This document shows positions 22,253 through 61,369 of a stretch of 64,000 nt of DNA, in pieces. Positions within the stretch are counted from its first letter, which is position 1; each line of letters starts with the position of its first letter. The notes under the pieces were generated by a model, which saw only the letters and a program-made list of their open reading frames with translations, made no database searches and was not told the origin of the DNA. Origin of the DNA: Eledone cirrhosa (lineage: Eukaryota); assembly GCA_964016885.1 (NCBI GenBank), contig OZ024753.1, positions 14,508,001 to 14,572,000 on the forward strand, read 5' to 3'. The position numbers and the translations under genes are program-made.

Positions 22253-22373
22253 TGAAGACATGATATGAAGGTTAAAAAACACTTGTGGATAGTTCAGTTG
22301 ATAGTTCAGTTGCTATGTTGATTTAAAACTGAACTATCCACAAGTGTTTTTTAACCTTCATATCATGTCTTCA

Positions 22374-22443: not shown

Positions 22444-22588
22444 ACATGGAACTCTTTTAACCATCTTTTGTTCTTATATATTATATACATAAATATATAT
22501 ATATATAATATATATAATTTTCCTTCGTTATATATATATGTATAAATATATATATATGTATATATGTATATATATATGTTTATGTATA

Positions 22589-34116: not shown

Positions 34117-34415
34117 ATATTTATTAAAATAACAGATTCCCATTCTTTGCCAGCGAACGTTTCCACGAACCAAAGTATCGTCTTCCTCTCTTCCTCCGGT
34201 TGCAACGTTTTTTGAAATATCCACTTCTGCGTTTACAGATTGACTTTGTTAGTTTCAGAAGATCCCGTTAAGGGTGCAAGCAGAGATTCTTTGCTTAAAC
34301 TTTAATCTGTTATTTTAATAAATATTTGCTCTACGGTTCTTATATATTTGATATATATTTATCCTTATCGAGCCCTCTTTGGATTTTAGTCTTCAAATTT
34401 ATTATTATTACTATT
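34117..34415 (+). mobile_element. Penelope-like element (second copy at 61005-61359) with a variant hammerhead at 34251-34301
   Basis: AGTTT-CAGAAGA-T-CCC/GGG-T-GCAA-GCA/TGC-TT^-AAACT. Inverted arm at 34117-34138 and 3' hairpin at 34328-34373. Confidence 0.65.
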
Positions 34416-34551
34416 ATATATATATATCTGGGTCCAGAAATAGCCGTCAAAACGGCTTCAGCTCTGCCGTCGGGGTCATACATTTTCCTATTAGCCACTC
34501 TACTACCCTAAGTATTGGTCCATCTGATTCCTTACCACAACTCCTTCGTTT

Positions 34552-37647: not shown

Positions 37648-37832
37648 GTTTTAATATAGAAGAGCTTCTACAGGACTAGAACTGTTTCATTCGTGAGAAA
37701 TCACCATCATGATTTCTCACGACTGAAACAGTTCTAGTCCTGTAGAAGCTCTTCTATATTAAAACTTTTATACTCTGCTATGTATTGAGTACCTTACTTA
37801 CTGTGGTTACCTCCGATTCAACCCGGAATAAC
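37648..37832 (+). mobile_element. Penelope-like family C copy 1 (arms 37648-37703 and 37710-37765)
   Basis: Same family as 56703-56870 and 58339-58541. The inversion truncates the hammerhead core; 3' hairpin at 37772-37790. Confidence 0.7.
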
Positions 37833-37865
37833 ATATATATATATATGTATATATATATATATGTA

Positions 37866-37911
<46 letters not shown>

Positions 37912-38005
37912 CAAATATATATGTATGATTTAATACACAACTTATACACTCTATGTTTTTTAAGTTGAATAATATTCTTACTGGTTTGTAAGTAGTAACC
38001 TCTTA

Positions 38006-38051
<46 letters not shown>

Positions 38052-39819
38052 TGTATGTATATATGTATCGTGTGCGTGGATGTATGTGTGCATTTAGATG
38101 TATAATTACATGCTTGTTGCTGAAAGATTTATAATACCTGTTATAGGTGAGGTTGTCCTAATTGCTTTTGTTTAACACCCCACCCCCCATTCCTCTAGTT
38201 GTTCCTCTCCAAGATGACCTCTGATTAGAACTTAGACTATATGGTGTCACCAAATAGTGACCGTATCATGTCCTTCTATTTCGGAATGGTCTACTTCTAG
38301 AGTACATTACCTTAGTTTTCGCTTACAAAAATGGTAAGATGTGATTTGAAAGAATTGAAGCTAACATTTCTGGCTGGTTAAACTACCATATCTAGGCCCT
38401 TTCATTGATTCATATAAGTTTTGTGATGTATGAAGGTTTGTTAGTTGTGCAAAGATTAATTTAATTTGAGAAATCAATGCAGCTAGAAGTTGTTTTTTAT
38501 TGTTTAGTGTGGGTTTGTATAGTTTAAATTGATTAGGTCACCGATGTGAATTACCAGAGTCATTAGCGCACCAGGTAAAATACTACTTGTTATTTATTTC
38601 AACTCTATGTGCTCTGAGTTCCCAGCCTACTATGTTCAACTTTGCCTTGCATCTGTTCAGGGTTGATAAATAAAGTAGCAGTCTAGATGTAGTGAGATAG
38701 TGAGATTGGTGAAATTGTTAGTGTCTCACAACTTATACTTTGCAATATCACTTTCAGTCTGACTTTGCTCGTGACATTACTTGTATCATGCAGTATCAGC
38801 CCTTGTCTTTTCTTTTGACAATATTACTGGCATAGAGTAAAGAAGTCTTGTACGTATCGACACCTACTAGCCTTCCATTAGAAAAAAAACACACAAAAAA
38901 AAACCAAACCTTTTCTAGACCTTCACATTAGAAAAAAACTTTCAAAATGCAGACCCAGCCCCGAAAAATGTATTATTAATATATCAATATATAACTGACA
39001 TTTACTATATTGAAACCCTTGCTAGAAGAGAAAATGGAGTCACCCTAAATCTGTTCTATATTTGGACTTGGGTCAGAAATAAAGAGAGAAAAAATTCAAA
39101 TTATTTAAACACTAAAATCCAAAATCCGGAGAAACTTGAAATAGTCCATCTCTTCTAGAACTATCATCGTTTTTTATGAGTATTAAGTCCTTGCCCTGTG
39201 TTTAAGAGTATAGAAGAGTGCGAGAGAAGCTTTGCAGTTTACTGTTCTGTTTTATATGTAAATAGTGTTAAACTTAAATACACCCTAAACTGCATTTGGA
39301 ATAAAGACATAGCAATAATCATTCTTAACAAAATTGAAAAAAAAAAGAAAAATTAATTAGACTGTGTGCAATCAAACCAGTTTTGTGTAACAGAACAGCG
39401 GCAGCAGCAAAAGCAGCAAAACTGTTATATACCTACTCTAAAATTATATAATTCCAAATTTCAATGGTGTGAATAAATATCAACATTTTTACATCACATT
39501 TCAATCCATTTGAACAGCCAAATTGATCAGAAATAATTCTATAAAATTTATCATCACTTACAGCCAATTAAAGCATCTGAAAGCATATAAACATGCACTA
39601 GAAAAACAAGAAACTCTACAGAAATGGAAGCAGTCCAATCATTAATAGCAAATGCTCCACCCCAACCAATCGCACCTCTCCAAAAAATTCCATTAAAGAA
39701 TTAATAAAATTTTACAGTCACTCAATAATATAGCATTTATAAAATATGTTTTTTAAAAGATTTTGTATTTGTAGGATAAAATTAGTTTCTCAAATGGTGT
39801 TTTAATGACATTGATATAT

Positions 39820-39863
<44 letters not shown>

Positions 39864-39874
39864 CATTTATATAT

Positions 39875-39921
<47 letters not shown>

Positions 39922-40012
39922 GATACACATATACATATATACTTATACATATACATATATATATATATACACATATACAGATACACATATACACTTATAT
40001 ATATACATATAC

Positions 40013-40043
<31 letters not shown>

Positions 40044-40183
40044 CTTATATATATACATATACATATATATACATATACATATATATACATATATATATAT
40101 ATATTTATATACTTATATATATACATATACATATATAGATACATATACCCATATATATACATATATACACATATATACATATA

Positions 40184-42727
40184 ATCATCATCATCATCAT
40201 CATTGTTTAACGTCCATATTCCACGCTTGCATGGGTTAGGACGGGAGTTTTCCCACTTGAGGCAAGATTGGTTGTCTTGCTCGTATAGGACTGTCTGGTG
40301 GGTTTTCTACGGCTGGATGCCCTTCCTAATACCAACCACATTTACAGTGTGGAACTGGTAGGTTTTTACCGTGTTACCTACACGGCCACATTATAGCGTG
40401 GACTGTGTATTTTTTTGTCATGACACCTACACGACCTCATTTGTTTCGGGCTGGATGTTGTGGTACCAACATAACTTTACATTGAAAGGGGTGGTGTGGA
40501 TGAGGTGGGGGTAGTGGGACGGGGTGTATTTTATTAGAGGAGCCTACTGACTGTAGTAGGTTTCACTTTGTACTTAGGTAAGGCGGGTCTTCTCTATTAC
40601 TGTGTAGCGCCAAAGATCTCGGTCCAGTGACATTATCTTGGAGAGGTGTAAGTGTGTGAGGTCGGAATTTATCAAGTCGTCCCAGGTTTTTCTGGGTCTG
40701 CCTACTCCGTGGCTACCGTCTATTTTTATTGCCCTGCACTTTTTTATACAGCTGTCGTCTTTCATGCGCATCACGTGACCATAACAACGTAGTCTTCTCT
40801 CGAGTAAACAACATCTGATCCCTCTTATTTCTAATTTTTCCCTTAGTTCATTTATGCTTTGCCGTTCACGTATATTACTATTACACATCCAGCGGAGCAT
40901 GCAAGCTTCGTTCCTCTCCAGTCTGCATATATCCTCTGCACACAATGCCCAGGTCTCACTGCCATGTAACATTGCTGTTCGTATGCAGGCATCATACAGC
41001 CTGCCTTTCATTTTTAGGGAGAACCCTTTAGCGGCTAATAGTGGTATAAGCTCTCTGAACTTTTTCCATCCAGTTCTGACTCTAGCTACTGTACTTTCAG
41101 AGCACCCTCCCCCACAGCTGATTTTGTCACCCAGGTAACGGAAGCTGTCCACTATTTCTATAGAACCATCTGTGCAATGGAATGAGCTAGTATTCTGTGG
41201 GCACTTGCTGCTACTTATTGCACCAGAGCACTGACCACATATAATATCTATGTTCTTAGTTAGCTTACCTGTGATCCCACTACATCTTTTATGCACCCAT
41301 ACTTTGCATTTGGGACATAAAATGGAGTTTCTACCTACTCATTTCCTACACACTGAGCATGGCCATTTCCCGGATGGGACCGGCGCCCTATTTTCTTTCC
41401 TACAAACTAGAACTTTAGTCTTAGACAGGTTAATTTTAAGGCCTTATGATTCTAGGCCATGCATCCATGTTTGGAATTTCTTCTCTAGTTCGGCCATTGA
41501 TTCAGCTATGAGCGTTAGATCATCTGTGTATAGGAGTTCCCATGGGCAGCCAGTCTTGAACTCCACTGTTAAAGCCTGACGGGCAATAATAAATAGTAGG
41601 GGGCTAAGAACGGAGCCCTGATGAACACCAACTTTTACGCTAAACTCTTCACTATATTCGTTGTTAATTCTAACCTTGCTGACTGTTTCTTTATACATGG
41701 CTTGTATAGCTCTCACAAGCCATTCATCAACACCTAGTTTTCTAAGAGCCCACCAGATAATGGAACGGGGGACTCTGTCGAAGGCTTTCTCCAAGTCGAC
41801 AAAAGCTAAGTATAGGGGTTTACTTTTAGCTAGGTACTTCTCCTGTAGTTGTCGTACAATGAAAAGAGCGTCTGTGGTACTTTTACCTGACACAAACCCG
41901 AACTGCATTTCATCTAGATCAATTCTCTCTCTGATTAGTTGCGCTATTACTTTTTCTGTGACCTTCATGACCTGGTCGATTAATTTAATGCCTCTATAGT
42001 TACTCCTATCTAGGGCATCACCTTTACCCTTGTAGCAGTTAATGATGATGCTGCTATGCCAGTCCTTCAGAACAACCCCATTCTGTATGACTTGGTTTAC
42101 TATCCGAGTGACCATGGTGTGTCCCACCATTCCAGAAGCTTTCAGCATTTCAGCAACTATTTCCGAAGGCCCAGCCGCCTTACCCGTCTTTATGTCTTTG
42201 ATTGCCTTACTTATTATACTACCTTCGACTAACAATGCTGGTCCCGCTATTGGGTCGATGTGGGGGAGACTGTCTTTCTCCCATTTATTCTCCTCATTTA
42301 GTAGCCTTTTCCTTGACATATTGCCTAGCAATCCTGAACACTTCACGTTTTTGGTCCTCGCGTTGTAGAACATGCTTGAACTTTCTTTCCTCTGCTTCAC
42401 TTCTTGCGAAGTACACTTGTCTCCTAGCTTCCCTCCTGGCCACTTGATAGTCATCTCTACTTCCCCCATCCCGCCATACTTTCCAAGCATGCTTTTTGGC
42501 CTTAATTGACTCCTCCACCTTACTGTTCCACCACCATGTTACTCTCCTCCTGCCTATAGGCCTGCTCCAGCCACAGACTTCGTCTGCCACCATCAGCAGA
42601 TTTGCTTTCAGGTATTCCCACTGTTCCTCTATATTGTATGACTCTAAATGCTCTTCCTTACTGTCGAAAGCATCAAGTAATATGCTTTTAAATTTATTTC
42701 TGGCTGTGGGGTCCTTTAGCTTCCATA
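40184..42727 (-). mobile_element. RTE LINE family A, 5'-truncated, with an about 100-bp internal deletion and an in-frame stop
   Basis: RT motifs as at 25694-28282, with YADD changed to YTDD. Confidence 0.93.
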
Positions 42728-42896
42728 TATATATACTTATATATATACACACACACACATATATATACTTATATATATACACATATATATATACTTATAT
42801 ATATACACACACACACATATATATACTTATATATATATACACATATATATATACTTATATATATACACACACACACATATATATACTTATATATAT

Positions 42897-42927
<31 letters not shown>

Positions 42928-42995
42928 CATTTCTATATACATATATATATATCATCATCATCTTCGTTTAACGTTCATCTTCCGTGCTAGCATGG

Positions 42996-43067
<72 letters not shown>

Positions 43068-43102
43068 TATATATATATGTATATATATATACATATATAT
43101 AT

Positions 43103-44420
43103 CTGAATCAATGGCTGAACTAGAGAAGAAATTCCAAACATGGAAGCATGGCCTAGAATCAAAAGGCCTTAAAGTTAACTTGTCTAAGACTAAAGTTCTA
43201 GTTTGTAGGAAGGAAAATAGGGCACCGGTCCCATCCGGGAAATGGCCATGCTCAGTGTGTAGGAAAGGAGTAGGTAGAAACTCCATTTTATGTCCCAAAT
43301 GCAAAGTATGGGTGCATAAAAGATGTAGTGGGATCACAGGTAAGCTAACTAAGAACATAGATTTTTATATGTGGCCGGTGCTCTGGTGCAATAAGTAGCA
43401 GCAAGTGCCCACAGAATACTAACTCATTCCATTGCACAGATGGTTCTATAGAAATAGTGGACAGCTTCCGTTACCTGGGGGATAAAATCAGCAGTGGGGG
43501 AGGGTGCTCTGAAAGTACAGTAGCTAGAGTCAGAACTGGATGGAAAACGTTCAGAGAGCTTATACCAATATTGGCCGCTAAAGAGTTCTCTCTAAAAATG
43601 AAAGGCAGGCTGTATGATGCCTGCATACGAACAGCAATGTTACATGGCAGTGAGACCTGGGCATTGTGTGCAGAGGATATACGCAGACTGGAGAGAAACG
43701 AAGCTTGCATGCTCCACTGGATGTGTAATAGTAATATACATGAACGGCAAAGCATAAACGAACTAAGGGAGAAATTAGAAATAAGAGGGATCAGATGTTG
43801 TTTACTCGAGAGAAGACTACGTTGGTATGGTCACGTGATGCGCATGAAAGACGACAGCTGTATAAAAAAGTGCAGGGCAATAAAAATAGATGGTAGCCAC
43901 GGAGTAGGCAGACCCAGAAAAACATGGGACGAGCTGATAAATTCCGACCTCACACACTTACACCTCTCCAAGACAATGTTACTGGACTGAGATCTTTGGC
44001 GCTACACAGTAATACAGAAGACCTGCCTTACCTAAGTGCAAAGTGAAACCTACTACAGTCAGTAGGCACCTCTAACAAAATACACCCCCGTCCCACTACC
44101 CCCACCTCATCCACACCACCCCTTTCAATGTAAAGTTATGTTGGTACCACAACATCCAGCCCCAAACAAATGAGGTCGTGTAGGTGTCACAACAAAAAAA
44201 CACAGTCCACGCTGTAATGTGGTGGCGTAGGTAACACGGTAAAAACCTCCCAGCCCCACACTGTAAATGTGGTTGATGTTAGGAAGGGCATCCAGCCATA
44301 GAAAACCCGCCAGACAGTCCTATGCGAGCAAGACAACCACTCTTGCCTCAAGTGGGAAAACTCCCATCCAGACCCATGCGAGCGTGGAATATGGATGTTA
44401 AACGAAGATGATGATGATGA
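43103..44420 (+). mobile_element. RTE LINE family A, 5'-truncated, frameshifted
   Basis: Inverted homolog of 40184-41505. Confidence 0.93.
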
Positions 44421-45307
44421 CATACATATATACCTGTACATACATATATACATGCACATACATATATATACAAGTATCTATATACACACATATATACATA
44501 TACACACATATATACATATACACACATATATACATATACATACATATACACACATATATACATATAGATACATATATATATATATATATATATAAACACA
44601 CATATATATATATATACAGATACATATATATATATATGTGTGCATGTGTGTGTGTGTATATGTATATATATATACATATAAACACACACATATATATATA
44701 TATACAGATACATATATATAAACACACACATATACATATATACAGATACAGATATATATATATATATATATGTGTGTATGTGTGTATATATATATATATA
44801 TGTGTGTGTATGTGTGTATATATATATATAAAGTAATAATATATGTAAACTATTTTTTCCTTTAGTAGTGACATGGGACATGTTTTATTTCTTTGAAAAC
44901 ACTTAAAACTTCCTTCCTACTTGATGTTGAAGATGCATTGTTACATAAGTTGTATATATTATCTCGTTATCTGTTTCTCTCTAGTCCCACATCATTCTTT
45001 TATATCTAAATAACCAATCAATAAATCTGACCTAAGATACAGTTCAACCTTTCATTTGTAATTCTCCTACAGAGATTGTTTCTCTTTTATAAACTAACAA
45101 ACAAACAAACAAACAAACAAAACTGATCAGCTTTCAATGTTTCTGTTTCTTTTCCAGTAATATTTAGTAGCTTTCATTGTCATTGGCTCCCATTTACACA
45201 TTTTTCATAGCAACTTTAGTCTTTCTTTAATGTTTTTTCACTGCTTCCCACTTTCGACTGTGGCCATGCTAGATATTTTCCACATTTTCTTCAAATATTA
45301 TTATTTT

Positions 45308-46666
45308 CATTCTGAGTTCAAACCCAGTCGAAGGTTAGCTGTGCCTTTCATACTTAAGGGAGGTGATATAATTAAGCACCAGTAATGTGCTGGTGTCAAT
45401 TTAATCGACTTTCCCATCCCCCACATTGTTCGCCTTGTGCCTAAATCAGAAACTATTATTATTATTATTATTATTATTATCATCATCAACAAAGGGCGGT
45501 GGATTGGCAGTATCGGTAGAGGGTCGAATGCCATGCTTTGCAGCATAGAGTTACGGCTCTTTAAGGTCTGAGTTCAAATCCCGCCGAGGTTAACTTTGCC
45601 TCTCATCCTTACGGTGTCGATAAAATAAATTACCAGTAATGTACTGAGATAATTGCTGGCCTTGTGCCAAAAGTAGAAACAATTATTATTATTTAGACCT
45701 TCTTCATAGCAGCTTAAGCCTTTATGTTTTATCTGCTTCCATCTGTCGTTGTGGTCATGCTAGTTATGCTCTACATTTTGGACCACAATATCACTATTAT
45801 TTGGAGGAGGGTTAATGCTGGCAACACTAAAGACATTTGAGGTCGTTAAATTGAGAGAGAGGACTCATTAAATCTACAACACAAACAGACCCATGGCCAT
45901 ATCTGAACCCAGGAAACAAAGAATTGAAGTAAATGCTACAAGGCATCTGATCTAATCGCGACCATTCTACGAATCTACTACACTGGACAATTTCTACCAA
46001 TCTACAGATCTGGACCATTCTACCAATCCACTACACTGGAACATTCTACAAATTCTACCAATTTACAGATCTGGACCATTCTACCAATCCACTACACTGG
46101 AACATTCTACAAATTCCACCAATCTACAGATCTGGACCATTCTAATAATCCTACCAATCCATGACCCTGGACCATTCTACCAATTCTACCAATCTACAGA
46201 TCTGGACCATTCTACCAATTCTACCAATCCACTACTCTGGACCATTCTAGTAATGGTTTCTGGTTTAGACACAAGGCCAGTAATCTGGGGGGAGGGGAAA
46301 GTCAATTAAATCGAGCCCAGCGTGTGTCTGGTACTTTATTTTATCGACCCCGTAAGGATGAAAGGCAAAGCTAATCTTGGCAGGATTTGAACTCAGAACG
46401 TAAAGGGACATAACTCTATGCTGAAAAGCATGGCTTCCGACCCTCTACTGATACTGCCAATCCACCACCCTTTTAATAATTGTTTCTACTTTTGGCATAA
46501 GGCCAGCAATTATCCCAGTGTATTACTGGTACTTTATTTTATCAACCCCGTAAGGATGAAAGGCAAAGTTAACCTTGGCGGCATTTGAACTCAGACCATA
46601 AAGGGCCGTAACTCTTAGCTGCAAAGCATGGCGTCCGACCCTCTAGTGATACTGCCAATCCACCGC
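45308..46666. mobile_element. SINE S1 cluster (45308-45455 +, 45494-45690 +, 46254-46470 -, 46480-46666 -) around a degenerate ACCATTCTACCAAT repeat (45960-46250)
   Basis: Matches to the S1 consensus plus a short degenerate tandem repeat. Confidence 0.8.
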
Positions 46667-47095
46667 ATGCTACCAAACCATTGCTCTGGACCATTCTATC
46701 AATGGTGCCAATCCAAAGCTCTGGGCCAGCACTTTATTTTATCAACCCAGAAAGAGATGAAAGGCAAAGTTTACCTCGGCAGAATTTAATTTCAGAGTAC
46801 AGAGAGCTGCAACAAATATCAGACTATTTTTTCTAATGCTATAACCCTTTCTTGACTGCATTTCTAATTAAATACAGTCTGTTTCAATTAATTAATGAAG
46901 AATTTTAAGGGATTTACTAAAATTATTAATTATTTCATTACTAAGATAACTTAATGTAAGGTTCTTATATGAAATTATATTAGAAGATTTTAATATAAAT
47001 TAACAATCTTTAAAATGGGTGATTTTATTTCATAGTTTTGGCTGGGTTGGTAACTAAAGGGTTAAAAGATCTGCCAATGTGCTGCTTGGTCTGGT

Positions 47096-48288
47096 GTTAG
47101 GGTTACATCTGGTAGTCAATGATTCTGTGACCCGGCGTTAGGGCTACATCTGGTAGTCAATGATGCTGTGACCCAGCATTAGGGCTACATCTGGGAGTCA
47201 ATGATACTGTGACCCAGCGTTAGGGTTACATCTGGTAGTCAATGATGCTGTGACCCAGCGTTAGGGCTACATCTGGGAGTCAATGATGCTGTGACCCAGC
47301 GTCAGGGCTACATCTGGTAGTCAATGATGCTGTGACCCAGCGTCAGGGCTACATCTGGTAGTCAATGATACTGTGACCCAGCGTTAGGGCTACATCTGGG
47401 AGTCAATGATACTGTGACCCAGCGTTAGGGCTACATCTGGTAGTCAATGATACTGTGACCCAGCGTTAGGGCTACATCTGGGAGTCAATGATACTGTGAC
47501 CCAGCGTTAGGGCTACATCTGGTAGTCAATGATGCTGTGACCCAGCGTTAGGGCTACATCTGGTAGTCAATGATGCTGTGACCCAGCGTTAGGGTTACAT
47601 CTGGTAGTCAATGATGCTGTGACCCAGCGTTAGGGCTACATCTGGTAGTCAATGATATTGTGACCCAGCATTAGGGCTACATCTGGTAGTCAATGATGCT
47701 GTGACCCAGCGTCAGGGCTACATCTGGTAGTCAATGATGCTGTGACCCAGCGTTAGGGCTACATCTGGTAGTCAATGATGCTGTGACCCAGCGTTAGGGC
47801 TACATCTGGTAGTCAATGATGCTGTGACCCAGCGTCAGGGCTACATCTGGTAGTCAATGATACTGTGACCCAGCGTTAGGGCTACATCTGGTAGTCAATG
47901 ATGCTGTGACCCAGCGTTAGGGCTACATCTGGTAGTCAATGATGCTGTGACCCAGCGTTAGGGCTACATCTGGTAGTCAATGATGCTGTGACCCAGCGTT
48001 AGGGCTACATCTGGTAGTCAATGATACTGTGACCCAGCATTAGGGCTACATCTGGTAGTCAATGATACTGTGACCCAGCGTTAGGGCTACATCTGGTAGT
48101 CAATGATACTGTGACCCAGCATTAGGGCTACATCTGGTAGTCAATGATACTGTGACCCAGCGTTAGGGCTACATCTGGTAGTCAATGATACTGTGACCCA
48201 GCATTAGGGCTACATCTGGTAGTCAATGATACTGTGACCCAGCATTAGGGCTACATCTGGTAGTCAATGATACTGTGACCCAGCGTTA
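47096..48288. repeat. Minisatellite, 41-bp unit, 29 copies
   Basis: Unit GTTAGGGCTACATCTGGTAGTCAATGATGCTGTGACCCAGC. Confidence 0.97.
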
Positions 48289-48337
48289 AAGGAGTTATAT
48301 TGTGGTTATAATGTTAACCTAGTTAAGGTAGTATGGT

Positions 48338-48985
48338 ATAGGTTATAGTATTACAGTATAGGTTATAGTATTACAGTATAGGTTATAGTATTACAGTACA
48401 GGTTATAGTATTATGGTATAGGTTATAGTATTATGGTATAGGTTATAGTATTACAGTACAGGTTATAGTATTACAGTATTGGTTATAGTATTACTGTATA
48501 GGTATTAAGGTACATCATCATTTTACGTCCGCTTTTCTCTGCTTGCAAGGGTGGGACGGGAACTGATTCTGGCTTGATTTCTACAGCTGGATGCCCTTCC
48601 TAACACCAACCTCATTTACAGTGAGTGCTGGGTGCTTTTTTTTTCCTTGGCACCTCCACGACCACTTTACAGTGTGGGCTGGGTGCTTTTTTGCCGTGGC
48701 ACCTCCACGACCACTTTACAGTGTGGGCTGGGTGCTTTTTTGCCGTGGCACCTCCACGACCACTTTGCAGTGGAATGATATGGACCCCAGTTCTATCATC
48801 TCATTTCTACAGCTGAGTAAACTGGAGCAATGTGAAGTAAAGTGTCTTGCTCAAGGAAACAACACATCATGAGGTCTGAGAATTGAACTCACAGCCTTTC
48901 GATTGCAAGGCCAATGCTCTAACCACTAAGCCATGTGCCTCCATACAGGTTATAGTATTATGTTACAGGTTATAGTATTATAGTA
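48338..48985. repeat. 20-bp minisatellite (TATAGGTTATAGTATTACAG) interrupted by SINE S2 (48513-48942, -)
   Basis: The repeat resumes after the SINE head. The SINE carries a triplicated tail module. Confidence 0.85.
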
Positions 48986-49399
48986 GGTAGTTAAGATAGT
49001 ATGGTACAGGTTGATGTTGAAGTTAACACTGTAACTATAGGGTTAAGGTAATATTGCCAGGTGGTGCTATTAAGTTAGACATGGCCTGGGCCAATACTGA
49101 CCGAAAGTTATCAAAATTATAATACTATAACATAGTTACAGTAATAAGGTGAAGTACTGGAGTTAAACCTGATACTATGATTAAGGGTTTAGTGAAGTTG
49201 TATGACAGTGATTAGGGCATTCACAGCATGATTGTAAGTTAATGAGTTTGACTCCCAGGAGTGCATTGTGTTCTTGAGCAAGACATTTTATTTTACATTG
49301 TTCCAGTCCACTCAGCTGGAAAAATTGATTTGTACCTGTAATTCAAATAACCAGCCCTGTCACACGGTGACTGTTTGAATCTCAATGAAAATTACACTA

Positions 49400-49698
49400 C
49401 CCTTTAGCATTTATATTACTCTCTATATATACTGTTGTATTTTCATGGTAAAGGCTTTACCTCACATAATATCTCAAATAACATTTACATTACTCTCTAT
49501 ATACTATTGTATTTTTATCGTAAAGTCTTTACCTAACATAATTATCTCACATAATATCAAATCTATGAGATTTTGATATTATTTATTTTGAGAACAATAC
49601 CTTAACATCAGTATGAGTGACCAGTTAAGCCGGTTTCAACAGAAAGAGGTGAGAGAATTCTGGCTGGATATGGCTGGTTTAAATGCTAAAGCATTAAA
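49400..49698 (+). mobile_element. piggyBac-like TTAA MITE with an internal duplication
   Basis: CCCTTTAGCATTT ... AAATGCTAAAG. Confidence 0.7.
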
Positions 49699-50651
49699 AA
49701 AGGTGTCAATGCTTTTATGGTTATATTAAAGCAGAGATAGTTTGATTTCTTATAGAAGGGACCTAATTGTAAATTTATATTGGGAAGTAAATCTGTTTAA
49801 TAAAATTACAGTATTTATATTTCTGTTTCAACTCATTTGAAATGATTGGAGAGGTATTAGTTTTGGTAGTGTTGTTGTTGGTGGTGGTAGTAGTAGAATT
49901 TCTGACATGAGAGAGTAAGAGTGGGAGGTTTTATAAAATGGTAATTCTTGTTTAAATTTGGTTACATTTGAAACTACATAAAATTTTGTATTGAAATTTG
50001 ATCATATGCCATATATAGTGAAGTAGGTTAGATGTCATTATAGATCTACTGGGTTTTAGATTCAAGTGGGACATATTTTTTACATATTTTTCTGAAGAAA
50101 CCACAGGACATTCATATGTTAATTAGTTGGTGGATTTTTTGGTTGTTTTGTTTGTTGTCATTGTTTATATGTGAAAGCTGAGCTAGTAAAGGAAAGAAAG
50201 AAGAGAAAAAACCAGTTCCCAGTTTGAATTTTAATAAATTCCCCCAAAACATGACAACCAAACAAAGCTGACAGCTGACTTGAAAATTACTTTAAACATC
50301 ATCAAAAACATTGAATTAAAATTGCAGTGAATTCAATTTCCCAATCAATCAATTTTATAAAAAAAAAAAAAAGAAGAATGAAGAAACCTTCTTTAAAAAA
50401 CACATTTATATCAAATTTGCAGCTATTTAATCTTTCGAAGAATGTGACATTTTAACACTTCTTCAAGTCAGCTTATCATTGAGTATTTCATCGGCTGACT
50501 TGAATATCAAGTTACATAGCATTTCAATTGTTATTTTCAAAATAATTCTAATTCTAGCAGGGGAAAAAATTTAATAAAAGACAATCAAAACTTAACAGAC
50601 ATTGGAGAAAGCCGTCGCCAAAAAAAAAAAAAACAGAGAGAGAAAGAGAGC

Positions 50652-50689
<38 letters not shown>

Positions 50690-51788
50690 AAAATTGAAAA
50701 ACAATGTTAGAAAAAAAGAAAAATGCATATCAAAAAAAAGCATAATGAAGAAAATATTAGTTTGATCGAAGCATCGGGCAACTAGTTCACAGACCACTTA
50801 GAACATTGGGAAACTGGGGAAATGGGCAAACCTGCTGGTATTGGGCGTGCGGAATGGATATATAGATGCCGCGGGTAAGCGGGTCCAACCCTGCGTTTCC
50901 TATGCCCTAAAATTGGAAAGGAAATTTGGTCCACAGTAATATAAATTGCTGGATTAAAAAAAAAAAATGGGACGACGAAATATTTTTTAAATATTTTTTT
51001 TTTTTCGCGTTTAGTTAACTTAACGTCCTGTACTGCATAAAACTGCATTAGCAAGACATTCTTAAAAAGTACAAAAACTGCACTATGACTACATCACATT
51101 AACAAGTAAAGTATTTAGTCTAATACTGCTCATTGTTACAACAATCTAACTATTAGTAACGATACTATAAACAGTTGAATTAACAAACCCATTTTAAGAT
51201 TCTTTTTGCTAAATCATTACAGGATGTTAAGAGTTAAATTAAAGAATTTCTCAATCTGGATTAAAATAATTTCACTTTTTCTTTTTTTGCTTGAGGACTA
51301 ATTTGAAAGTCTAACAGAAGTTAGAAGCAGAAACCATAAATGTTTATAATGACACAAACAGTTGTTTTGCTATGAAGTATCTGTTATGAATTAAAAATAT
51401 GAATTTGTGTATCAAATAAACTTTCAGAATGTTTGATATCAACGATTATGTATTATCTCCTTTTTTAACTATATATATTTTTAAATTGAAATAATTTTAC
51501 ATCGGAGGAATTAGTGAGGAGGTTATTTTTAAAAAGTTCTTTAATTCCAAAGCAAGTGCAATTTCTTGCAGAATTCTGAGAGAAAATTAAAGAAAATAAA
51601 CAGTAAAAAAAAAAATCTACAAATTCAAACATCTAAAATATCTTTAGATTAAGTCATTTAAAATTATGGTTAATCAGAAATCTAATTAACAAATTAATAT
51701 ATGCATGTGTGTGTATGAATGAGTGTGAATGTATGTGTGTGTGTATATATATATACCCAAAGAATTATAGCTTCGATGTATATGCATG

Positions 51789-51819
<31 letters not shown>

Positions 51820-52097
51820 TAGTATTAGTGCTCAGAATAGCGATGTATACATGAATGTATGTATAGTATATTTGGCAATATACCGTATGTTTAATTAAAA
51901 ACATTTAGAAGACCATTTGCTATGAGTTTTAAAGTAGTGATTATGCCACTTACTTACTCTCGGCAAACAAGAGAGTAAGTGAATAAGAGAGTAAGTAAGT
52001 GACATAGTCACTACTTTAAAACTCATAGTGAATGGTCTTCTAAATGTTTTTAATTAAACATACGGCATATTGCCAAATATACTATATATACATTCAT
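51820..52097 (-). repeat. Inverted-repeat element (arms 51851-51961 and 51987-52097); family also at 56235-56680
   Basis: About 110-bp arms; homologous sequence at 56235-56340 and 56510-56615. Confidence 0.8.
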
Positions 52098-52397
52098 ATC
52101 ATCATCATCATATCATCAATTTACGCCCGCTTTTCCCTGCTTGCAAGGGTGGGATGGGAACTGATTCTGGCTTGATTTCTACAGCTGGATGCCCTTTCTA
52201 ACACCAACCTCATTTACAGTTAATGCTGGGTGCTTTTTTGCCGTGGCACCTCCACGACCACTTCTACAGCTGAGTAAACTAGAGCAATGTGAAATAAAGT
52301 GTCTTGCTTAAGGAAACAACACATCACGCGGTCTGAGAATTGAACTCACAACCTTTCGATTGCAAGGCCAATGCTCTAACCATTAAGCTATGTGCCT
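52098..52397 (-). mobile_element. SINE S2 with an internal deletion
   Basis: Matches the S2 consensus. Confidence 0.88.
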
Positions 52398-52424
52398 ATA
52401 TCTATATATATATATATATATATA

Positions 52425-52562
52425 GTACAGAATTAGCCGTCGAAACGGCTTGAGCTCAGCCGTCGGGGTCCTACTTGTTCCTATTACCCACTCTACTACC
52501 CTAAGTATTGAGTACTTTGGTGCGTTATGGTCCACCTGGTTCCTTACCACATTTCCTTCGTT
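52425..52562 (+). mobile_element. Short structured element family D (also 34431-34552, 37203-37257, 22517-22529), TA-flanked
   Basis: AGCCGT-CGAA-ACGGCT hairpin, ACTC-TACT/AGTA-TT-GAGT hairpin, and a common 3' end TCCTTCGTT-(TA)n. Confidence 0.6.
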
Positions 52563-52762
52563 ATATATATATATATATATTTTTTTTTAAATATATAAAT
52601 TTATTTATATATTTTTAAATATATAAATAAATAAATGCCATTGTTAACTAATACCTTAACACTTCACACAAAGTAAAATATTTTGTTTTAAACATTTTCT
52701 AACTCTAAAAATAAAAGGAAAAAAAAAATTTTTCTTCCTAATAATCGTCTTTTCCTCCCTAT

Positions 52763-52818
<56 letters not shown>

Positions 52819-52820
<2 letters not shown>

Positions 52821-53178
52821 TTTTTGTATTTGTTTTGCAAGATTTTTTTATTTCAAAACGTGTCGAAACAGATATTATTATAGTTTGGGAGGAATTTGCT
52901 GCCAATAAAAAGCACACGTATGTTTCACATCAATTTATTATTATAATTTTTCAGTTGACTACTTTAATAACCAGATGGCACCTTAGTTCTTGATTGTCCT
53001 CAAAGTAGTCACCAAGGCGACGAGGTCACAGAATGTGTGATGACAGAGCTTTGATGACAATCAATAACTGATTATTAAACTAACTGACTAGGAAGTTATA
53101 ATAATATATTGAAGTAAAGTTCAGCAGGTGCTTGAGTTTTTTTATTGGTAGCATGACTCTCCCAAAGTATAACAATAT
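52819..53178. mobile_element. Asymmetric inverted-repeat element (related copy at 55879-56225)
   Basis: Shared left end ATTTGTTTTGC...GTGTCGAAACA; arms 52872-52911 / 53138-53178. Confidence 0.55.
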
Positions 53179-53555
53179 AATATAATATATATATATATAT
53201 ATATAGCTCATTCAAATAATTGTTAAGATTTAGTTTCTCCATCCATTTGATTATAAGAAATGGTACGCATCCATTTTCCTTCTATGAATGTTGAAAAAAA
53301 ATTGTTTTGAATAAAGTTATGAGACTACTATTTTATTACTTATCCCTGTTTTGTTTAAAATAATTTACCACATCTATTTATCTATATATACACACACATA
53401 TATATATATATATATTAGAAAAAGTTGGGGCCTGATGGCTGAGCTCTTGTTGTTTTGACAGCTAATTCTACTCTACTAGCTCAAGTATCGAGTACTTTGT
53501 TGAATAATAGTTGTACTAGTTTAATATTGGTTTCATCTTTATATATATATTTTTT

Positions 53556-53815
53556 AGTATATGTTGGTTGTTTACCGACACCTCAGTATGCAGATTGGAA
53601 CACTCGACGAAGTACGCAGGTTGGTTTGTTTACTCCAGAGTAATGTAAAATAATTAAGTCAAATAGGTAAAATATGGCTTCGTTTATTATAAATTATAGA
53701 TATACTGCTATATATATTTCAGTGACAGCCGAATAATGGCTGTCACCGAAATATATATAGCAGTATATCTATAATTTATAATAAATGAAGCCAAATTTTA
53801 CCTATTTGACTTAAT

Positions 53816-53822
<7 letters not shown>
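53556..53822 (-). mobile_element. Penelope-like element folded back at hammerhead stem II (arms 53646-53730 and 53738-53822)
   Basis: Centre reads GTGACAGCC-GAATAAT-GGCTGTCAC-C-GAAA-TATATA-TA-GCAG. Confidence 0.65.
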
Positions 53823-53860
<38 letters not shown>

Positions 53861-55163
53861 AATATATATATATATGTATATATAAATATATATATATACA
53901 TATATATAAATATATATATATACATATATATATATATATCATTGGCACAGATTAAAATTTAAATTTCAATCTGTGCCAATGATATATATGTGTATATATA
54001 TATATATAATATACACTCCCTGGACACTGGATATATATATATATACACACACATGCATATACACACAAACACATACACAATTATACATTTTTAAATCTCC
54101 TACAATATTTTTTCTGCTATAATCCCGGAGGTTTTGAATACAAAACTCCTGAATTTCCTTTGATGCACAAATTCAAATTCATTGCTTTTTGTTTTTGCTT
54201 TTTTCATTAAATGATTCTATCTTTTGTTTTTTGTGTCCCAAAATATTAATGACAATCTTTAATTATCTTGGAGAAGCCAAGACAATTATTTCTTATTTCT
54301 TCAGAATCTAACCGGTTTTTTTTTTTTATGTAAATTTATTTTAACTTTATTATATTTTCATAACTGTTATTTTTCTATATCAAATAAAGATTTGGAAAAA
54401 AAAAGAGAGAGATTTAAATAAGTAAATATTCAAAAAAGAAACATTTTATTTTGTGTCTATATATTTATCTGAATTATAGATGTAGCTCATGCAAGATATT
54501 TTAACAAATTTTGTTTTCTTTTATTTATTTAAAAAAAAAAAAAATTTAATATTTATTAAAACAGTGTGAGGTATGTGAAATAAAAAGCAGGGTTGTAATA
54601 GAAAGAAAACATTCTTGGGTATTATGAGGCGATGGATTGGTTGAGGGTTTGCAAGAGAGTGAGAGAGAGAGAGAGAGTGTGTGAGGGGGTCAGTGAAGGA
54701 GAAGGTAAGTGAGGCAGAAGGTAAGTGAGGAAGAACAAGAGATAGAAACAAATGGATTTAGAGAGAGCGAGAGAGAAGGGTGAGAGATTGAAAAAAATGA
54801 AAATGATAAAGAGGGTGTGAAACAAGGAGGGTAAGAGGGAAGGAAAGACAAAGAGAGCAAGAGAAATAGCAAAAAAAAAAAAAATAAGAGAGAGAGAAGA
54901 AAGCAAAAGGTGAGGGACAGACAGGATAATATTAAAAATACAGAAAAAAGAAAAAAAAGGCAAACACAAACATAAAACTAATATGACATAAATTCCCAAG
55001 ATTTTGACCAGACAGCATAGCTAATGAAATTTAATTCATAAATAACGATTTATAAAAATAACACCACCACCAACAACTAAATTATGCAATTCCACACAAT
55101 TATTTGCAAATAAAATGTGATTTAGCAATTACAACAACAAGAAAGTAATTATAATTATAATAA

Positions 55164-55441
55164 TTGTTTCTACTTTTGGCACAAGGCTAGCAATTATCCC
55201 AATGTATTACTGGTACTTTAAATGGTTTCTTATATAGGCGGCACGAGGCCAGCAGTTTGGGGGAGGGGGAAGTTGATTAAATCGACCCCAGTGTGTGACT
55301 GGTACTTTATTTTATCGACCCCGTAAGGATGAAAGGCAAAGTTAACCTCAGCAGGATCTGAACTCAGACAGTAAAGGGCCGTAACTCTGTGCTGCAAAGC
55401 ATGGCGTCCGATCCTCTACCAATACTGCCAATCCACCGCCC
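55164..55441 (-). mobile_element. SINE S1 (partial plus full copy)
   Basis: Matches the S1 consensus. Confidence 0.85.
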
Positions 55442-55643
55442 TATAATTATAATGATAATAATGAATTCTAAGCTAAGAACAAGGTTTGAGATTTTGTGAA
55501 AGAGGAAGAGACTAGACTCTCAATATCACGTTAATAGTGGCCACCAGAATATGTCTGGTATTATATTTTATTAATGCTAGAAAGATGAACAGCAAAGTCA
55601 ATCTCAATAGGATTTGAAATAAGAATGCAAACAAACATATGGG

Positions 55644-55855
55644 ATATACTGGAATATAAGCCCATACAAATATAAGCTGATCCCACTGTTTTATGTCTGA
55701 GAAAAGGGTAAAATATCCAAACCGTATTTACGGAGAATTTGAAGTTGGTGAAAATAGTCAAAATATTGACCTGAATATGAATATAAGACGACCCCCTTCT
55801 ACCATCCAATTTTTGGTCATATATTCCTTCTTGGCTTATATTTGAGTACATACAG
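55644..55855. mobile_element. pogo/Tigger-type MITE
   Basis: ATATACTGGAATATAAGCC / GGCTTATATTTGAGTACATACAG|TA; homologous to 57557-57736. Confidence 0.65.
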
Positions 55856-55878
55856 TATATATATATATATATATATAT

Positions 55879-56225
55879 ATTTGTTTTGCGAGGTTTTTGA
55901 TATGAAATCGTGTGTCGAAACAAATATTGTTATACTTGGGGAGGGTCATATTGTTGTAATAATATTGCCAGAATTAAAAACAGAACACACTCACTGTTTG
56001 GTTGGTTTTCGTTTCTGTATCTTTTATATCAGTGAATTCATTTGGTCCTCAATGTTTACCAATGACTGACCAATGATGGCATAGATATACAATACAACAG
56101 GCGGAACATAATAGCACCATTGACGATGTTGCAGATGTGAAAACCAACCAAACTGTGAGTATGTTCTGTGATTAATTCTGGCAATATTATTACAACAATA
56201 TGACCCTCCCCAAGTATAACAATAT
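55879..56225. mobile_element. Asymmetric inverted-repeat element (arms 55924-56010 and 56139-56225)
   Basis: About 87-bp imperfect arms, TA-flanked. Confidence 0.6.
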
Positions 56226-56355
56226 ATATATATATGTATGTATGGTATATTTGGCAATATACTGTTTGTTTAATTAAAAACACTTAGAAGATCATACACT
56301 ATCTGTTTTAAAGTAGTGACTATGTCGCTTACTTCTTTTCGGTGAAAGAAGGGAG

Positions 56356-56400
56356 AGAAGCTGACAGTCTGTTTCACGCTGATTGGCGTTCATCAGACCC
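56356..56400 (-). ncRNA. Hammerhead ribozyme motif (second, degenerate copy at 56615-56660)
   Basis: CTGATGA-ACGC/GCGT-GAAA-CA-GAC-TG-TC^; stem I is weak in this copy. Confidence 0.6.
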
Positions 56401-56702
56401 ACACACCCCACTGCTTTCGCCAAAAATTATAGAAGCTGGATTCTTATAGAATTCCAGTCAAAAATCAGGAGCTGATTATACAGACCGATTGCCGGTCCAG
56501 CAAAAATTAAGTATTAGGATTTGTGCTCTGAAATAGCGATGTATACATGAATGTATGTATAGTACATTTGGCAATATACCGTATGTTTAATTAAAAACAT
56601 TTAGAAGGCCATTTAGAAGCTGACAGTCTATTTCATGTTGGTTGGCGTTCATCAGAGACACGCACCCCACTGCTTCCGCATATATATATATATATATATA
56701 CA

Positions 56703-56863
56703 TTATTCCGGGTTGAGTCGGAGGTAACCACAGTAAGTAAGGTACTCAATACATTGCAGAGTATAAAAGTTTTAATATAGATGAGATTCTACAGGACTAG
56801 AACTGTTTCATTCTTTAGAAATCATCAGAAAGAATGAAACAGTTCTAGTCCTGTAGAATCTCA

Positions 56864-56870
<7 letters not shown>
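56703..56870 (-). mobile_element. Penelope-like family C copy 2 (arms 56775-56816 and 56829-56870)
   Basis: Hammerhead core CTGATGA-TTTC-TAAA-GAAT-GAAA-CAG/CTG-TA; 3' hairpin at 56744-56762. Confidence 0.7.
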
Positions 56871-56922
<52 letters not shown>

Positions 56923-57094
56923 ATATCAGCAAGTATTGCACCCCCAAAAAATATATATAAACGTCGGTGTGAAGGAAGGAGATTAGGAATTTATTTGCTT
57001 TAACATATGTTTCTGTGTCTATTATAATTATCTACATATGCTGACTACATTGTATATTGTTCAATCATATGCAATATTTAATTATACAAACACA

Positions 57095-57127
<33 letters not shown>

Positions 57128-57131
<4 letters not shown>

Positions 57132-57299
57132 ACAAAGTGGAGATGTTACATAGGATATTTATTGCTTAACCAGGATTGAGCAATAGATCTCCTATGTAAC
57201 ATCTCCACCTCGTTCTTATTATATATATTCTGCTCTGCATCATGTGCTGACTATGGTTCTCTCATCAGTTTTCTTTGAACCAGGATTTACTGAACTTTC

Positions 57300-57302
<3 letters not shown>
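57128..57302 (+). repeat. Inverted repeat (57128-57169 / 57176-57217) with a unique 3' tail, TA-flanked
   Basis: GTGGAGATGTTACATAGGA versus TCCTATGTAACATCTCCAC. Confidence 0.7.
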
Positions 57303-57348
<46 letters not shown>

Positions 57349-57412
57349 AGCGAATGTTCAACTGTCAAGGTTGTTTTCCATGGTTATGTCACTATTTATA
57401 AAACAAATTTTG

Positions 57413-57477
57413 TATTTTATCTGATGAAAGCACACCAAGATTGGTTTGGTTGCCCTTGAAATATATATAATAAAATA
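57413..57477 (+). ncRNA. Type I hammerhead ribozyme within a TA-flanked element (57347-57520)
   Basis: TATTTTAT-CTGATGA-AAG...CTT-GAAA-TATATA-TA^-ATAAAATA. The 8-bp stem I is extended by TATTTATAAAAC / GTTTTATAAATA. Confidence 0.78.
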
Positions 57478-57556
57478 ATTATGGTTTTATAAATATACTT
57501 TCCATTTATTATTATATTGTATATATATATATATACAGTATATATATATATATATA

Positions 57557-57736
57557 CTGTATATACTGGAATATAAGCTGAATGTCAGAGAAATGGGCAA
57601 AAATCTAAAGCTTATTTACGTAAAATTTGAAGTTGGTGAAAATCATCAAAATATTGACCCTGAATATAAGCTGACCCCACCTTCTACCAACAATTTTTGG
57701 TCACATATTTCTCAGCTTGTATTTGAGCATATATGG
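57557..57736. mobile_element. pogo/Tigger-type MITE
   Basis: TA|CTGTATATACTGGAATATAAGCTGA ... TCAGCTTGTATTTGAGCATATATGG|TA. Confidence 0.7.
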
Positions 57737-58180
57737 TAAATAAATTATTTCGTCCAGTGTCCTAATTAGTATACCAAATTCAACATACTCTTAACAATAA
57801 AGGATTCTACCTTTGGCAGGCCTAAGGCCAGACATTTTACTTAATCAAATACTTTACTGGTTCCTTATTTTATTGACCTAAAAAGGATGAAAGGTAAATT
57901 GGATCATGGCAAGATCTGACCTTGGAACACAAAGAGCTAGAAGAAATTCTGCTATGAATTTTTCTGCTGCTCTAGCAACTCTGCTACTGCCCTCTGTAGG
58001 CAGAAAGGGAGTAATTAATGTATGGTGACCATATCCACACTTGTGTATATCAATTAAGTTGGCATTATCTTTGTCTGTTCCATCATCATTTTAGTTTTGA
58101 TTGCCTCCAGAATGTAACCTTATTAAAGCCGTGCTAGCGTGGAAGATAGACGTTAAACGAAGAAGATGATGATGATGATG

Positions 58181-58260
58181 AAGGTGTCTGATGATATCAT
58201 AGCAGTGGTTGGCCGGAAATGCATGGGCTCTGTCATCATTGAAATATATATTACAGCCTT
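58181..58260 (+). ncRNA. Degenerate type I hammerhead
   Basis: AAGGTGT-CTGATGA-(decayed long stem II)-GAAA-TATATA-TT^-ACAGCCTT. Confidence 0.5.
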
Positions 58261-58306
58261 ATAAATAAAGGACTTTCACATCAGCAACTACTTCACATTT
58301 TCTTAT

Positions 58307-58338
<32 letters not shown>

Positions 58339-58339
<1 letters not shown>

Positions 58340-58541
58340 TAATATAGAAAAGCTTCTACAGGACTAGAACTGTTTCATTCGTGAGAAATCATCAGGAAGC
58401 TGGCTGTCCAAGTCATGATGATTTCTCACGAATGAAACAGTTCTAGTCTTGTAGAAGCTTTTCTATATTAAAATATTTATACTATGCTATGTATTGAGTA
58501 CCTTACTTACTGTGGTTACCTCCGATTCAACCTGGAATAAC
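58339..58541 (+). mobile_element. Penelope-like family C copy 3 (arms 58339-58394 and 58416-58471)
   Basis: Same family as the 37648 and 56703 copies, with a different inversion breakpoint. Confidence 0.7.
58351..58401 (-). ncRNA. Complete type I hammerhead ribozyme
   Basis: AGCTTC-CTGATGA-T-TTC/TCAC/GAA-T-GAAA-CAG-TTCTAGTC-CTG-TA^-GAAGCT. All three stems pair. Confidence 0.82.
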
Positions 58542-61004: not shown

Positions 61005-61359
61005 TAGTAATAATAATAAATTTGAAGACCAAAATCCAAAGAGGGCTCGATAAGGATAAATTAAAATCAAATATATAAGAACCGTAGAGCAAATATTTAT
61101 TAAAATAACAGATTAAAGTTAAAGCAAAGAATCGCTGCTTTCACCCTTAACGGGATCTTCTGAAACTAACAAAGTCAATCTGTGAACGCAGAAGTGAATA
61201 TTTCAAAGAGTGTTACAACCAGAGGAAGACAAGAAGACGATACTTTGGTTCGTGGAAATGTTCCCTGGCAAAGAACGGGAAAAAACGAATTATTTGGAGC
61301 CAAGACGTAAAATATCCGCGTATAGATTGTACTATCCGTTAAACTTTAATTTGTTATTT
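61005..61359 (-). mobile_element. Penelope-like element with a variant hammerhead at 61117-61167
   Basis: AGTTT-CAGAAGA-T-CCC/GGG-T-GAAA-GCA/TGC-TT^-TAACT. Inverted arm at 61332-61359 and 3' hairpin at 61045-61090. Confidence 0.65.
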
Positions 61360-61369
61360 TAATAAATAT

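Follow-up and report, generated by a model that had tools for sequence, protein, structure and literature searches.

Endonuclease-bearing Penelope-like elements (PLEs) insert at microsatellite targets and carry an inverted, 5'-truncated copy of themselves, a tail of 30-40 bp at one end only, a pseudo-long terminal repeat (pLTR), which in the canonical clades has a hammerhead ribozyme, and partial tandems (PMC8557442). The origin of their tandem and inverted ends is named as an open question in the same source, and the models in print or implied are antisense self-priming (PMC3846280) and reverse transcription from two internal starts (PMC11167929). The subject of this text is family C, a short repeat with three copies in a stretch of 64,000 nucleotides from Eledone cirrhosa (contig OZ024753.1, positions 14,508,001 to 14,572,000 of the forward strand), referred to below as the window, in whose own coordinates all positions are given. 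Judged by its anatomy, family C is a member of the PLEs and belongs to an already described kind of element, and its insertions are very probably very short stubs of the pLTR of an endonuclease-bearing PLE. The point worth following is a family-wide 5' boundary at the edge of the ribozyme, accompanied by a TATA box at promoter spacing. Both are consistent with a PLE lineage whose transcript would start at the first base of the hammerhead from a TATA/initiator promoter, and in which run-off on both strands would mass-produce hairpin stubs of 170-200 nt. This reading is held at a probability of roughly 0.35.

Several described systems lie close to this family. For the Poseidon element of Anolis carolinensis (PAc), both target strands are cut and extended in vitro, a dimer is predicted, and the reverse transcriptase (RT) starts at two internal sites that bound the tail, using RNA that is uncut (Frangieh et al. 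2024; PMC11167929). Penelopes of Adineta vaga carry an optional tail of 31 bp, and a TATA box with an initiator has been proposed for one of their pLTRs (Arkhipova et al. 2013; PMC3846280). Metazoan PLE hammerheads occur as opposite-strand pairs 100-700 bp apart and as many single motifs, which have been ascribed to truncated PLEs (Cervera and De la Pena 2014; PMC4209133).

All three family C copies share one plan, in which a tail-less inverted arm is followed by a forward arm and a one-sided tail of 67-72 nt, sited in (TA)n. The element is numbered from the C of its CUGAUGA box (+1, zero omitted). Copy 1 opens with an inverted arm on the minus strand (37648..37703, element +5..+60) that adjoins a (GA)n/(TA)n/(TC)n compound repeat. 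A junction of 5 nt (37704..37708) follows, at which the TGATGA box folds back almost perfectly, apart from a slip of one triplet, around a central TCATGA palindrome; it leads into the plus-strand forward arm (37709..37765, +4..+60), which holds the hammerhead without its 5' part, and a plus-strand tail of 67 nt (37766..37832). Copy 2 has the opposite orientation, with a minus-strand tail of 72 nt (56703..56774), a minus-strand forward arm (56775..56828, +1..+54) that starts exactly at CUGAUGA or, alternatively, from -3 with one substitution, and a plus-strand inverted arm (56829..56870, +13..+54) that adjoins (TA)n at TATAT; no spacer separates its arms. The inverted arm of copy 3 (58339..58413, minus strand, -18..+57) extends 19 nt further upstream than its partner, the plus-strand forward arm (58416..58471, +2..+57), with 2 nt between them and a plus-strand tail of 70 nt (58472..58541) behind; reads and contigs align across 58411-58413. 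All three tails end in (TA)n. A sensitive search of the window returned no family C copy beyond these three, none of which consists of a tail only.

The first-pass annotation of this DNA had proposed that the copies at 37648 (plus), 56703 (minus) and 58339 (plus) share their 3' end, that each folds back at a point of its own within about 20 nt of CUGAUGA, and that the inverted arm ends at a fixed internal point from which two copies join the repeat directly; measurement of the copies upholds these descriptions. In 3/3 copies CAACCYGGAATAA closes the tail and is separated from (TA)n by 1-2 letters. The inner ends (inverted/forward arm) lie at +5/+4 in copy 1, +13/+1 in copy 2 and -18/+2 in copy 3, which places all six within 20 nt of the box and makes the three junctions mutually different. 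The inverted arms have their outer ends at +60, +54 and +57 in copies 1, 2 and 3, respectively. Those of copies 2 and 3 run directly into (TA)n, and the joint of copy 1 is the compound repeat, without TA microhomology; five of the six outer ends of the insertions thus adjoin (TA)n and one adjoins the compound repeat. The arms of one copy differ from each other by one letter (copies 1 and 3) or none (copy 2) and have their subfamily letters in common, which argues that a single type of template gave rise to both arms within a short time. The duplicated stretch amounts to 42-57 nt per copy, and the insertion to 170-200 nt. The tail forms no unusually stable fold (z +0.23 to -1.43), and family C resembles nothing else in the window, the long interspersed nuclear element (LINE) copies included.

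For the family as a whole, two runs of restriction site-associated DNA (RAD) reads (X15, X16) and two contig sets (X1 and X5, the latter from a second organism) were aligned to 58340-58415. Matches were obtained for 5,275 reads of X15, 5,610 reads of X16, 9,560 contigs of X1 and 5 contigs of X5, and these thousands of matches show that family C is high-copy. RAD reads cover the genome unevenly and are mutually non-independent, arms that end before about +27 are invisible with this single reference, and joints seen in reads may include fold-back chimeras made in the library; the joints are the 15 listed of 21, nucleotide differences are those at listed positions, and depth-loss rates exclude the X1 contigs because of edge effects. 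About three quarters of the arms depart from the reference between +7 and -6 of the box in both read runs, a figure that is inflated by subfamily clipping. Depth is lost at 0.9-1.1% per nt from +23 to +7, at 3.6-3.8% in the invariant core and at about 10% from +7 to -6, and the depth left at -5..-7 is 25% (X15) and 23% (X16) of the peak, against 83-93% expected from read ends alone. Nine of the 15 listed joints change strand, and the other six are go-back (head-to-tail) joints, in reads or contigs. All nine strand-changing joints have one end at -1..-5, with the partner end at +15..+19 in four and at +1..-3 in five; the best supported of them has 3 nt of microhomology, and symmetric joints of the (-3,-3) type occur in 16 contigs. 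Agreement among the loose ends at -3 is low (0.46, 0.59 and 0.41, against 0.74-0.85 for the shared continuation at -8), and this heterogeneity argues that many of them are real, independent ends.

Truncation at the ribozyme cleavage site can be ruled out, since all six arms cross that site and depth makes no step there in X15 or X16; the missing step also indicates that the templates were uncut, as in PAc. Breakpoints scattered at random, or identical in most copies through inheritance from a master element, had been named beforehand as outcomes that would speak against an origin at each insertion, and neither was seen. The ends are clustered, with at least nine junction types in reads and contigs, and this variety, together with the three different window junctions, bears out inversions that are made per insertion. 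The gathering of inner ends at the ribozyme likewise extends from the window to the family, as the depth collapse from +7 to -6 and the joint ends at -1..-5 attest. Such family-wide clustering at the 5' edge of the ribozyme was not found in print and is new relative to the literature found: no mapping of PLE 5' ends against the hammerhead turned up in what were mostly non-subscription papers, although the coverage plot in Fig. S2 of PMC11167929 may show one, and the papers searched likewise yielded nothing on a Penelope hammerhead in connection with a TATA box or transcription start.

The hammerhead itself was located with a type I descriptor widened to admit a palindromic helix III, which gave five motifs in the window (one in family C, the remaining four spread over three further families) but no motif in any of 100 local dinucleotide shuffles. 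The family C motif (58351..58401, minus strand) lies in the inverted arm of copy 3, the only one of the six arms with a complete hammerhead, and is predicted to form a helix I of 6 bp, a helix II of 3 bp and a helix III of 4 bp around CUGAUGA (at 58395) and GAAA. Cleavage is predicted after GUA, between 58357 and 58356, and CC-A/CAG stands at -8..-5. Rfam returned no hammerhead match on 58335-58420. In the reads, C-G at the helix I pair -4/+43 is replaced by A-U in 1,669 of 2,337 and in 2,749 of 3,897 reads (71% each, at the level of frequencies and not phased). The loop of helix II (+12 to +15) differs from the reference in 30-77% of reads, and the other listed positions from +1 to +38 in at most 9%. 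By the descriptor, and with a compensatory helix I pair in the reads, the type I hammerhead of family C is real, and its self-cleavage is predicted. The hammerhead fold has a predicted energy of -6.6 kcal/mol and the best fold one of -7.7 kcal/mol (z +0.43 relative to shuffles), and stem II does not fold on its own.

Set beside the described systems, family C shows the inverted, 5'-truncated copy adjoining the 5' end (3/3 copies and nine listed strand-changing joints), the one-sided tail between two fixed 3' ends (3/3 copies, 67-72 nt), the type I hammerhead in the repeat (by descriptor) and partial head-to-tail tandems (six of the 15 listed joints; none in the window). It has these features and the microsatellite target in common with the PLEs of PMC8557442, where the pLTR hammerhead belongs to the canonical clades. 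It departs from them in the length of the tail (67-72 nt compared to 30-40 nt), in an insertion of just 170-200 nt and in having no open reading frame (ORF) linked to it; the available text of that source mentions no shared 5' boundary at the edge of the ribozyme. A (TA)n microsatellite target together with a canonical hammerhead is a Neptune-type combination, whereas Naiads lack the canonical hammerhead that family C possesses (PMC8557442). PAc resembles family C in its two internal RT starts bounding a tail just 3' of the hammerhead, its AT-rich target and its uncut template, but primes without target homology in an AC-rich stem-loop, whereas the starts of family C are AT-rich and target-like in most copies; inner breakpoints, mapped here, are not given in the available PAc text (PMC11167929). 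The Adineta Penelopes share head-to-head pLTRs, junction palindromes and, in the one pLTR mentioned above, the TATA box with initiator (PMC3846280). Like metazoan PLE type I hammerheads, that of family C has an extra base before helix II, but its helix III of 4 bp with an 8 nt loop differs from their minimal palindromic one, and it has U-U in place of their G10.1-C11.1 (PMC4209133).

Non-LTR retrozymes are likewise non-coding, PLE-derived hammerhead repeats with head-to-tail joints, but they form tandem arrays, whereas the window copies of family C lie scattered as head-to-head hairpins in which most ribozymes are incomplete (Li et al. 2026; 10.64898/2026.07.22.740005). The two or more tandem units with complete hammerheads that define a retrozyme are absent from the three window copies; other family C loci may have them, given the tandem joints found elsewhere. 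Head-to-tail joints run from 58403 to 58340 with 13-14 letters between them (61 reads with 17 starts in X15, 24 reads with 7 starts in X16). They imply hammerhead tandems whose predicted unit measures about 77 nt, which would make this a retrozyme-like repeat of very small size.

The inverted and forward arms are probably two separate RNA-templated cDNAs. Their asymmetry is opposite in two copies, the tail-bearing arm being longer in copy 2 and the tail-less arm in copy 3. The longer arm of copy 3 holds no tail to copy, so that a cDNA folding back on itself cannot yield this copy, whereas two cDNAs from two fixed starts explain both asymmetry classes, each represented by one copy. The protein of the element would cut both strands of the (TA)n target, as PLE biochemistry suggests, after which one target end would prime at the tail end (+126/+127) and its counterpart at a further start inside the element (+54 to +60). 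Both cDNAs would then copy the same RNA segment towards the RNA 5' end and be joined head to head, partly via TTC/GAA complementarities of the ribozyme, with which the +15..+19 class of joints fits. A fold-back primed on one strand with an antisense template, as proposed from junction palindromes for the Adineta Penelopes (PMC3846280), would make the hairpin before insertion. Copies 1 and 3 each have a TCATGA palindrome at the junction, which may leave room for local snap-back. This and the symmetric (-3,-3) joints of the 16 contigs speak for such self-priming, but it would need the tail to be lost from the primed arm in one of copies 2 and 3 and from the template arm in the other, and the fixed outer end corresponds to a known RT start site in PAc (PMC11167929). 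It is therefore improbable for family C, whose copies 2 and 3 are better explained by two cDNAs. In LINE-1 twin priming, both target ends prime on the RNA and the 5' inversion is joined by microhomology with little duplication. A LINE, for example of the RTE type, could have acted in this way on a short hammerhead RNA, or a pre-inverted master could have been inherited; the only RT genes in the window are RTE-type LINE ORFs, and some joints recur in 14-16 contigs. Against this stand the 42-57 nt duplicated in each copy, the lack of any match between family C and the LINE copies of the window and the variation of junctions among copies, which leave it very improbable. Family C differs from LINE-1 twin priming in having a fixed second start that the first cDNA passes, and in yielding a duplicated hairpin. 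The first-pass annotation had likened the process to a twin priming that duplicates, with the second target end annealing to an AU-rich patch. The duplication and the second internal priming stand, but they amount to the known PLE pattern rather than to a new kind of insertion (PMC11167929). Annealing to the patch is plausible for copies 2 and 3 but misfits copy 1, and PAc manages without it.

As to why both cDNAs end where they do, the upstream loose ends contain TATAAATA starting 30 nt (X15, X16, X1) and 31 nt (X5) before an A at -6, and another X5 contig has TATAAAC at a distance of 29 nt from that A, all counted by eye. A distance of 29-31 nt is the usual spacing between a TATA box and the start of transcription. 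The motifs at this distance span two diverged upstream types, and helix I begins with the A at -6, whose CC-A context resembles an initiator. The chance rate of the TATA motif is 0.0013 per site, for a test made post hoc on related sequences. Read in this way, the motifs suggest, tentatively and at a little under even odds, that the arms end near the box because the 5' end of the RNA lies there. Transcription from the TATA/initiator promoter would start at -6, and priming at the 5'-most copy of the start sites would lead to run-off within 60-130 nt. Trimming before joining would spread the ends just downstream of -6, matching the observed spread, and arms that extend further upstream would stem from templates that include the promoter region, through the 3' repeat or read-through.

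Several points weigh against run-off from -6 and the PLE stubs it presupposes. The start site is a motif reading made after the data had been seen, not one of the six arms in the window stops precisely at -6, and sequence beyond that position is present in copy 3 (to -18) and in about a quarter of the reads (to -7). The Penelope promoter of D. virilis is TATA-less with a start well upstream (PMC2377424), and the 3' end of an intron in that element maps to the 5' end of helix I (PMC4209133). A listed fold-back joint is present in only 149 of 5,275 and 236 of 5,610 reads; -4 deviates from the reference in 75% of reads, so that an end called at -3 may lie anywhere from -3 to -7; and about 2,050 of the 5,275 X15 reads come from a subfamily whose upstream part clips at -3 anyway. 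Clipping inflates the depth loss as well, in addition to the unseen short arms and uneven, non-independent reads noted above. Finally, the 130 window ORFs of at least 62 aa include RTE-type LINE domains only and no PLE-type RT or GIY-YIG domain, although stubs would lack one in any case.

The first-pass annotation had both cDNAs stall at the ribozyme structure, and the same two-primer insertion could indeed be halted by a folded, perhaps protein-bound, hammerhead: the ends gather over the ribozyme core, four of the nine listed strand-changing joints end at +15..+19, the 3' edge of helix II, and folding of the PAc hammerhead is protein-assisted, so that folding energies may understate the structure (PMC11167929). 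However, the predicted fold is no more stable than those of shuffles and helix II alone stays unfolded. The RT runs 3' to 5' on the RNA, and by +5 to -6 it has unwound helices III and II and displaced helix I, so that the main loss, from +7 to -6, comes after the helices have been passed. In addition, the hammerhead fold-backs at 18292 and 22142, from two other families, pivot 41-62 nt upstream of the box, no window copy is tail-only, and the size of the PAc product is unaffected by hammerhead mutants (PMC11167929). Stalling is thus unlikely as the cause of the clustering, and that part of the annotation is not retained. Equally doubtful is a role for CAG at -7..-5 as a 3' splice site, by which spliced templates would join another exon at -4 or splicing factors would block the RT. 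The D. virilis intron end cited above favours it, as do a T run directly before CAG in one upstream type and the largest pile of loose ends, at -3, where the X15 and X16 consensus sequences have a 10-letter motif in common. The heterogeneity of those loose ends argues otherwise, splicing leaves the ends at +1..+5 and the conserved TATA spacing unexplained, and introns are usually retained in PLE copies (PMC8557442). The clustering could also be mostly apparent, a product of heavy 5' truncation, unseen short arms and the clipping of alignments at the divergence of subfamilies upstream of helix I; alignments are indeed clipped by variation from -4 onwards, only one reference and three window copies were available, and heavy truncation is known for PLE copies (PMC8557442). 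This too is unlikely, because loss already reaches 3.6-3.8% per nt in the invariant core, up from about 1% immediately before the core, no single continuation is common to the loose ends at -3, and all six window arms, which are free of clipping, end between +13 and -18.

Eight other fold-backs measured in the window are built alike, and their extensions, again on one side only, amount to about 31-95 nt. Two hammerhead-bearing fold-backs served as controls, one at 18292..18717 (plus strand), with a 92 nt tail and a pivot that lies 41-62 nt upstream of the box, and one at 22049..22487 (minus strand), with a 93 nt tail and both arms pivoting 55 nt upstream of the box. The forward arm of the former has 21 extra nt, 30 nt before the box, which begin with the splice-donor-like GTATGT and are absent from the other arm; they lack a terminal AG and are too short for an intron. 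The latter has complete minimal hammerheads (palindromic TGCGCA) on both arms. Family D comprises 34117..34425 (plus strand; a 22 nt inverted arm, a forward arm and a tail of about 95 nt; no hammerhead by descriptor) and 61005..61369 (minus strand; the same outer junction, AATAAATAT, an inverted arm of about 30 nt and a 58 nt spacer). The fixed outer junction onto (AT)n that had been claimed for this pair holds as far as the shared AATAAATAT is concerned, which adjoins (AT)n at 34117, but at 61369 (AC)n intervenes before (AT)n. Having no hammerhead by descriptor, family D is uninformative on stalling at a ribozyme. Its 58 nt spacer (61282-61340) matches neither arm and is probably further upstream sequence, and a fixed inner end in family D was dropped for this reason. 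Copy 1 of family D lies in the same (TA)n as, and directly after, a near-perfect 236 nt fold-back (33585-34100) with a 36 nt tail, CUGAUGA near its outer end and no GAAA, which thus has no canonical hammerhead and is possibly Naiad-like. Two fold-backs that lack a CUGAUGA box, at 53551-53822 and 55880-56225, extend on one side into (TA)n, by 95 nt and 43 nt, respectively. A repeated family at 51820-52097 and 56236-56680 has CUGAUGA and GAAA boxes (56396, 56655, minus strand) but fails the helix I test, and one of its copies is a fold-back. A decayed hammerhead-like motif (57268) at 57128-57305, on the minus strand, is followed downstream by an imperfect 90 nt hairpin in a layout unlike that of the other fold-backs, and a single complete minimal hammerhead with an 8 bp helix I and no inverted partner lies at 57413-57477 on the plus strand.

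The window is animal-type DNA of 34.7% GC, rich in (TA)n, in repeats resembling short interspersed nuclear elements (SINEs) and in RTE-type LINE pieces, a repeat content reminiscent of that of octopuses. LINE copies at 25697-28540 (minus strand), 12063-13514 and 40205-44403 encode an endonuclease, an RT and, after the RT, a PHD-like finger. A SINE-like repeat of 330 nt forms pairs, head-to-head or tail-to-tail and 92-95% alike, around one shared microsatellite at 28938-29482 and 61548-62269. An element resembling a miniature inverted-repeat transposable element (MITE), with TTAACCCTTT ends, is found in tandem and inverted copies at 1263-2129, 15211-15446 and 49399-49698, and a second MITE-like element of 80 nt, with CAGGGTGTCCC ends, at 20849-20928. 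Local tandem duplications or minisatellites occupy 23100-25200, 9141-11951, 47096-48288 and 59070-59570, including a duplicated low-complexity block of about 1 kb; these may be assembly error. Among the Rfam matches listed for the whole window (150 of 304) are only sub-threshold microRNA models on simple repeats and hairpins. A scan with the family C pattern gave no match in metagenome contigs and none in viral contigs; a shorter pattern led to one locus (L001) without CUGAUGA, tail or fold-back, which was judged a chance match.

Family C combines a high copy number with a fixed outer end and tightly clustered inner ends, and an assembly-wide count of these ends could decide between the two models of how PLE inverted ends arise. 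If the RNA does not start at helix I, its copies are ordinary PLE stubs. If it does, the masses of half-ribozyme hairpins in such genomes would be explained, and the hammerhead would be tied to the 5' end of the transcript and not to the cutting of templates. The thousands of paired junctions would then be a natural record of both cDNA ends, and the inverted repeats of PLEs would be shown to come from two RNA-templated cDNAs joined at microhomologies that the ribozyme supplies.

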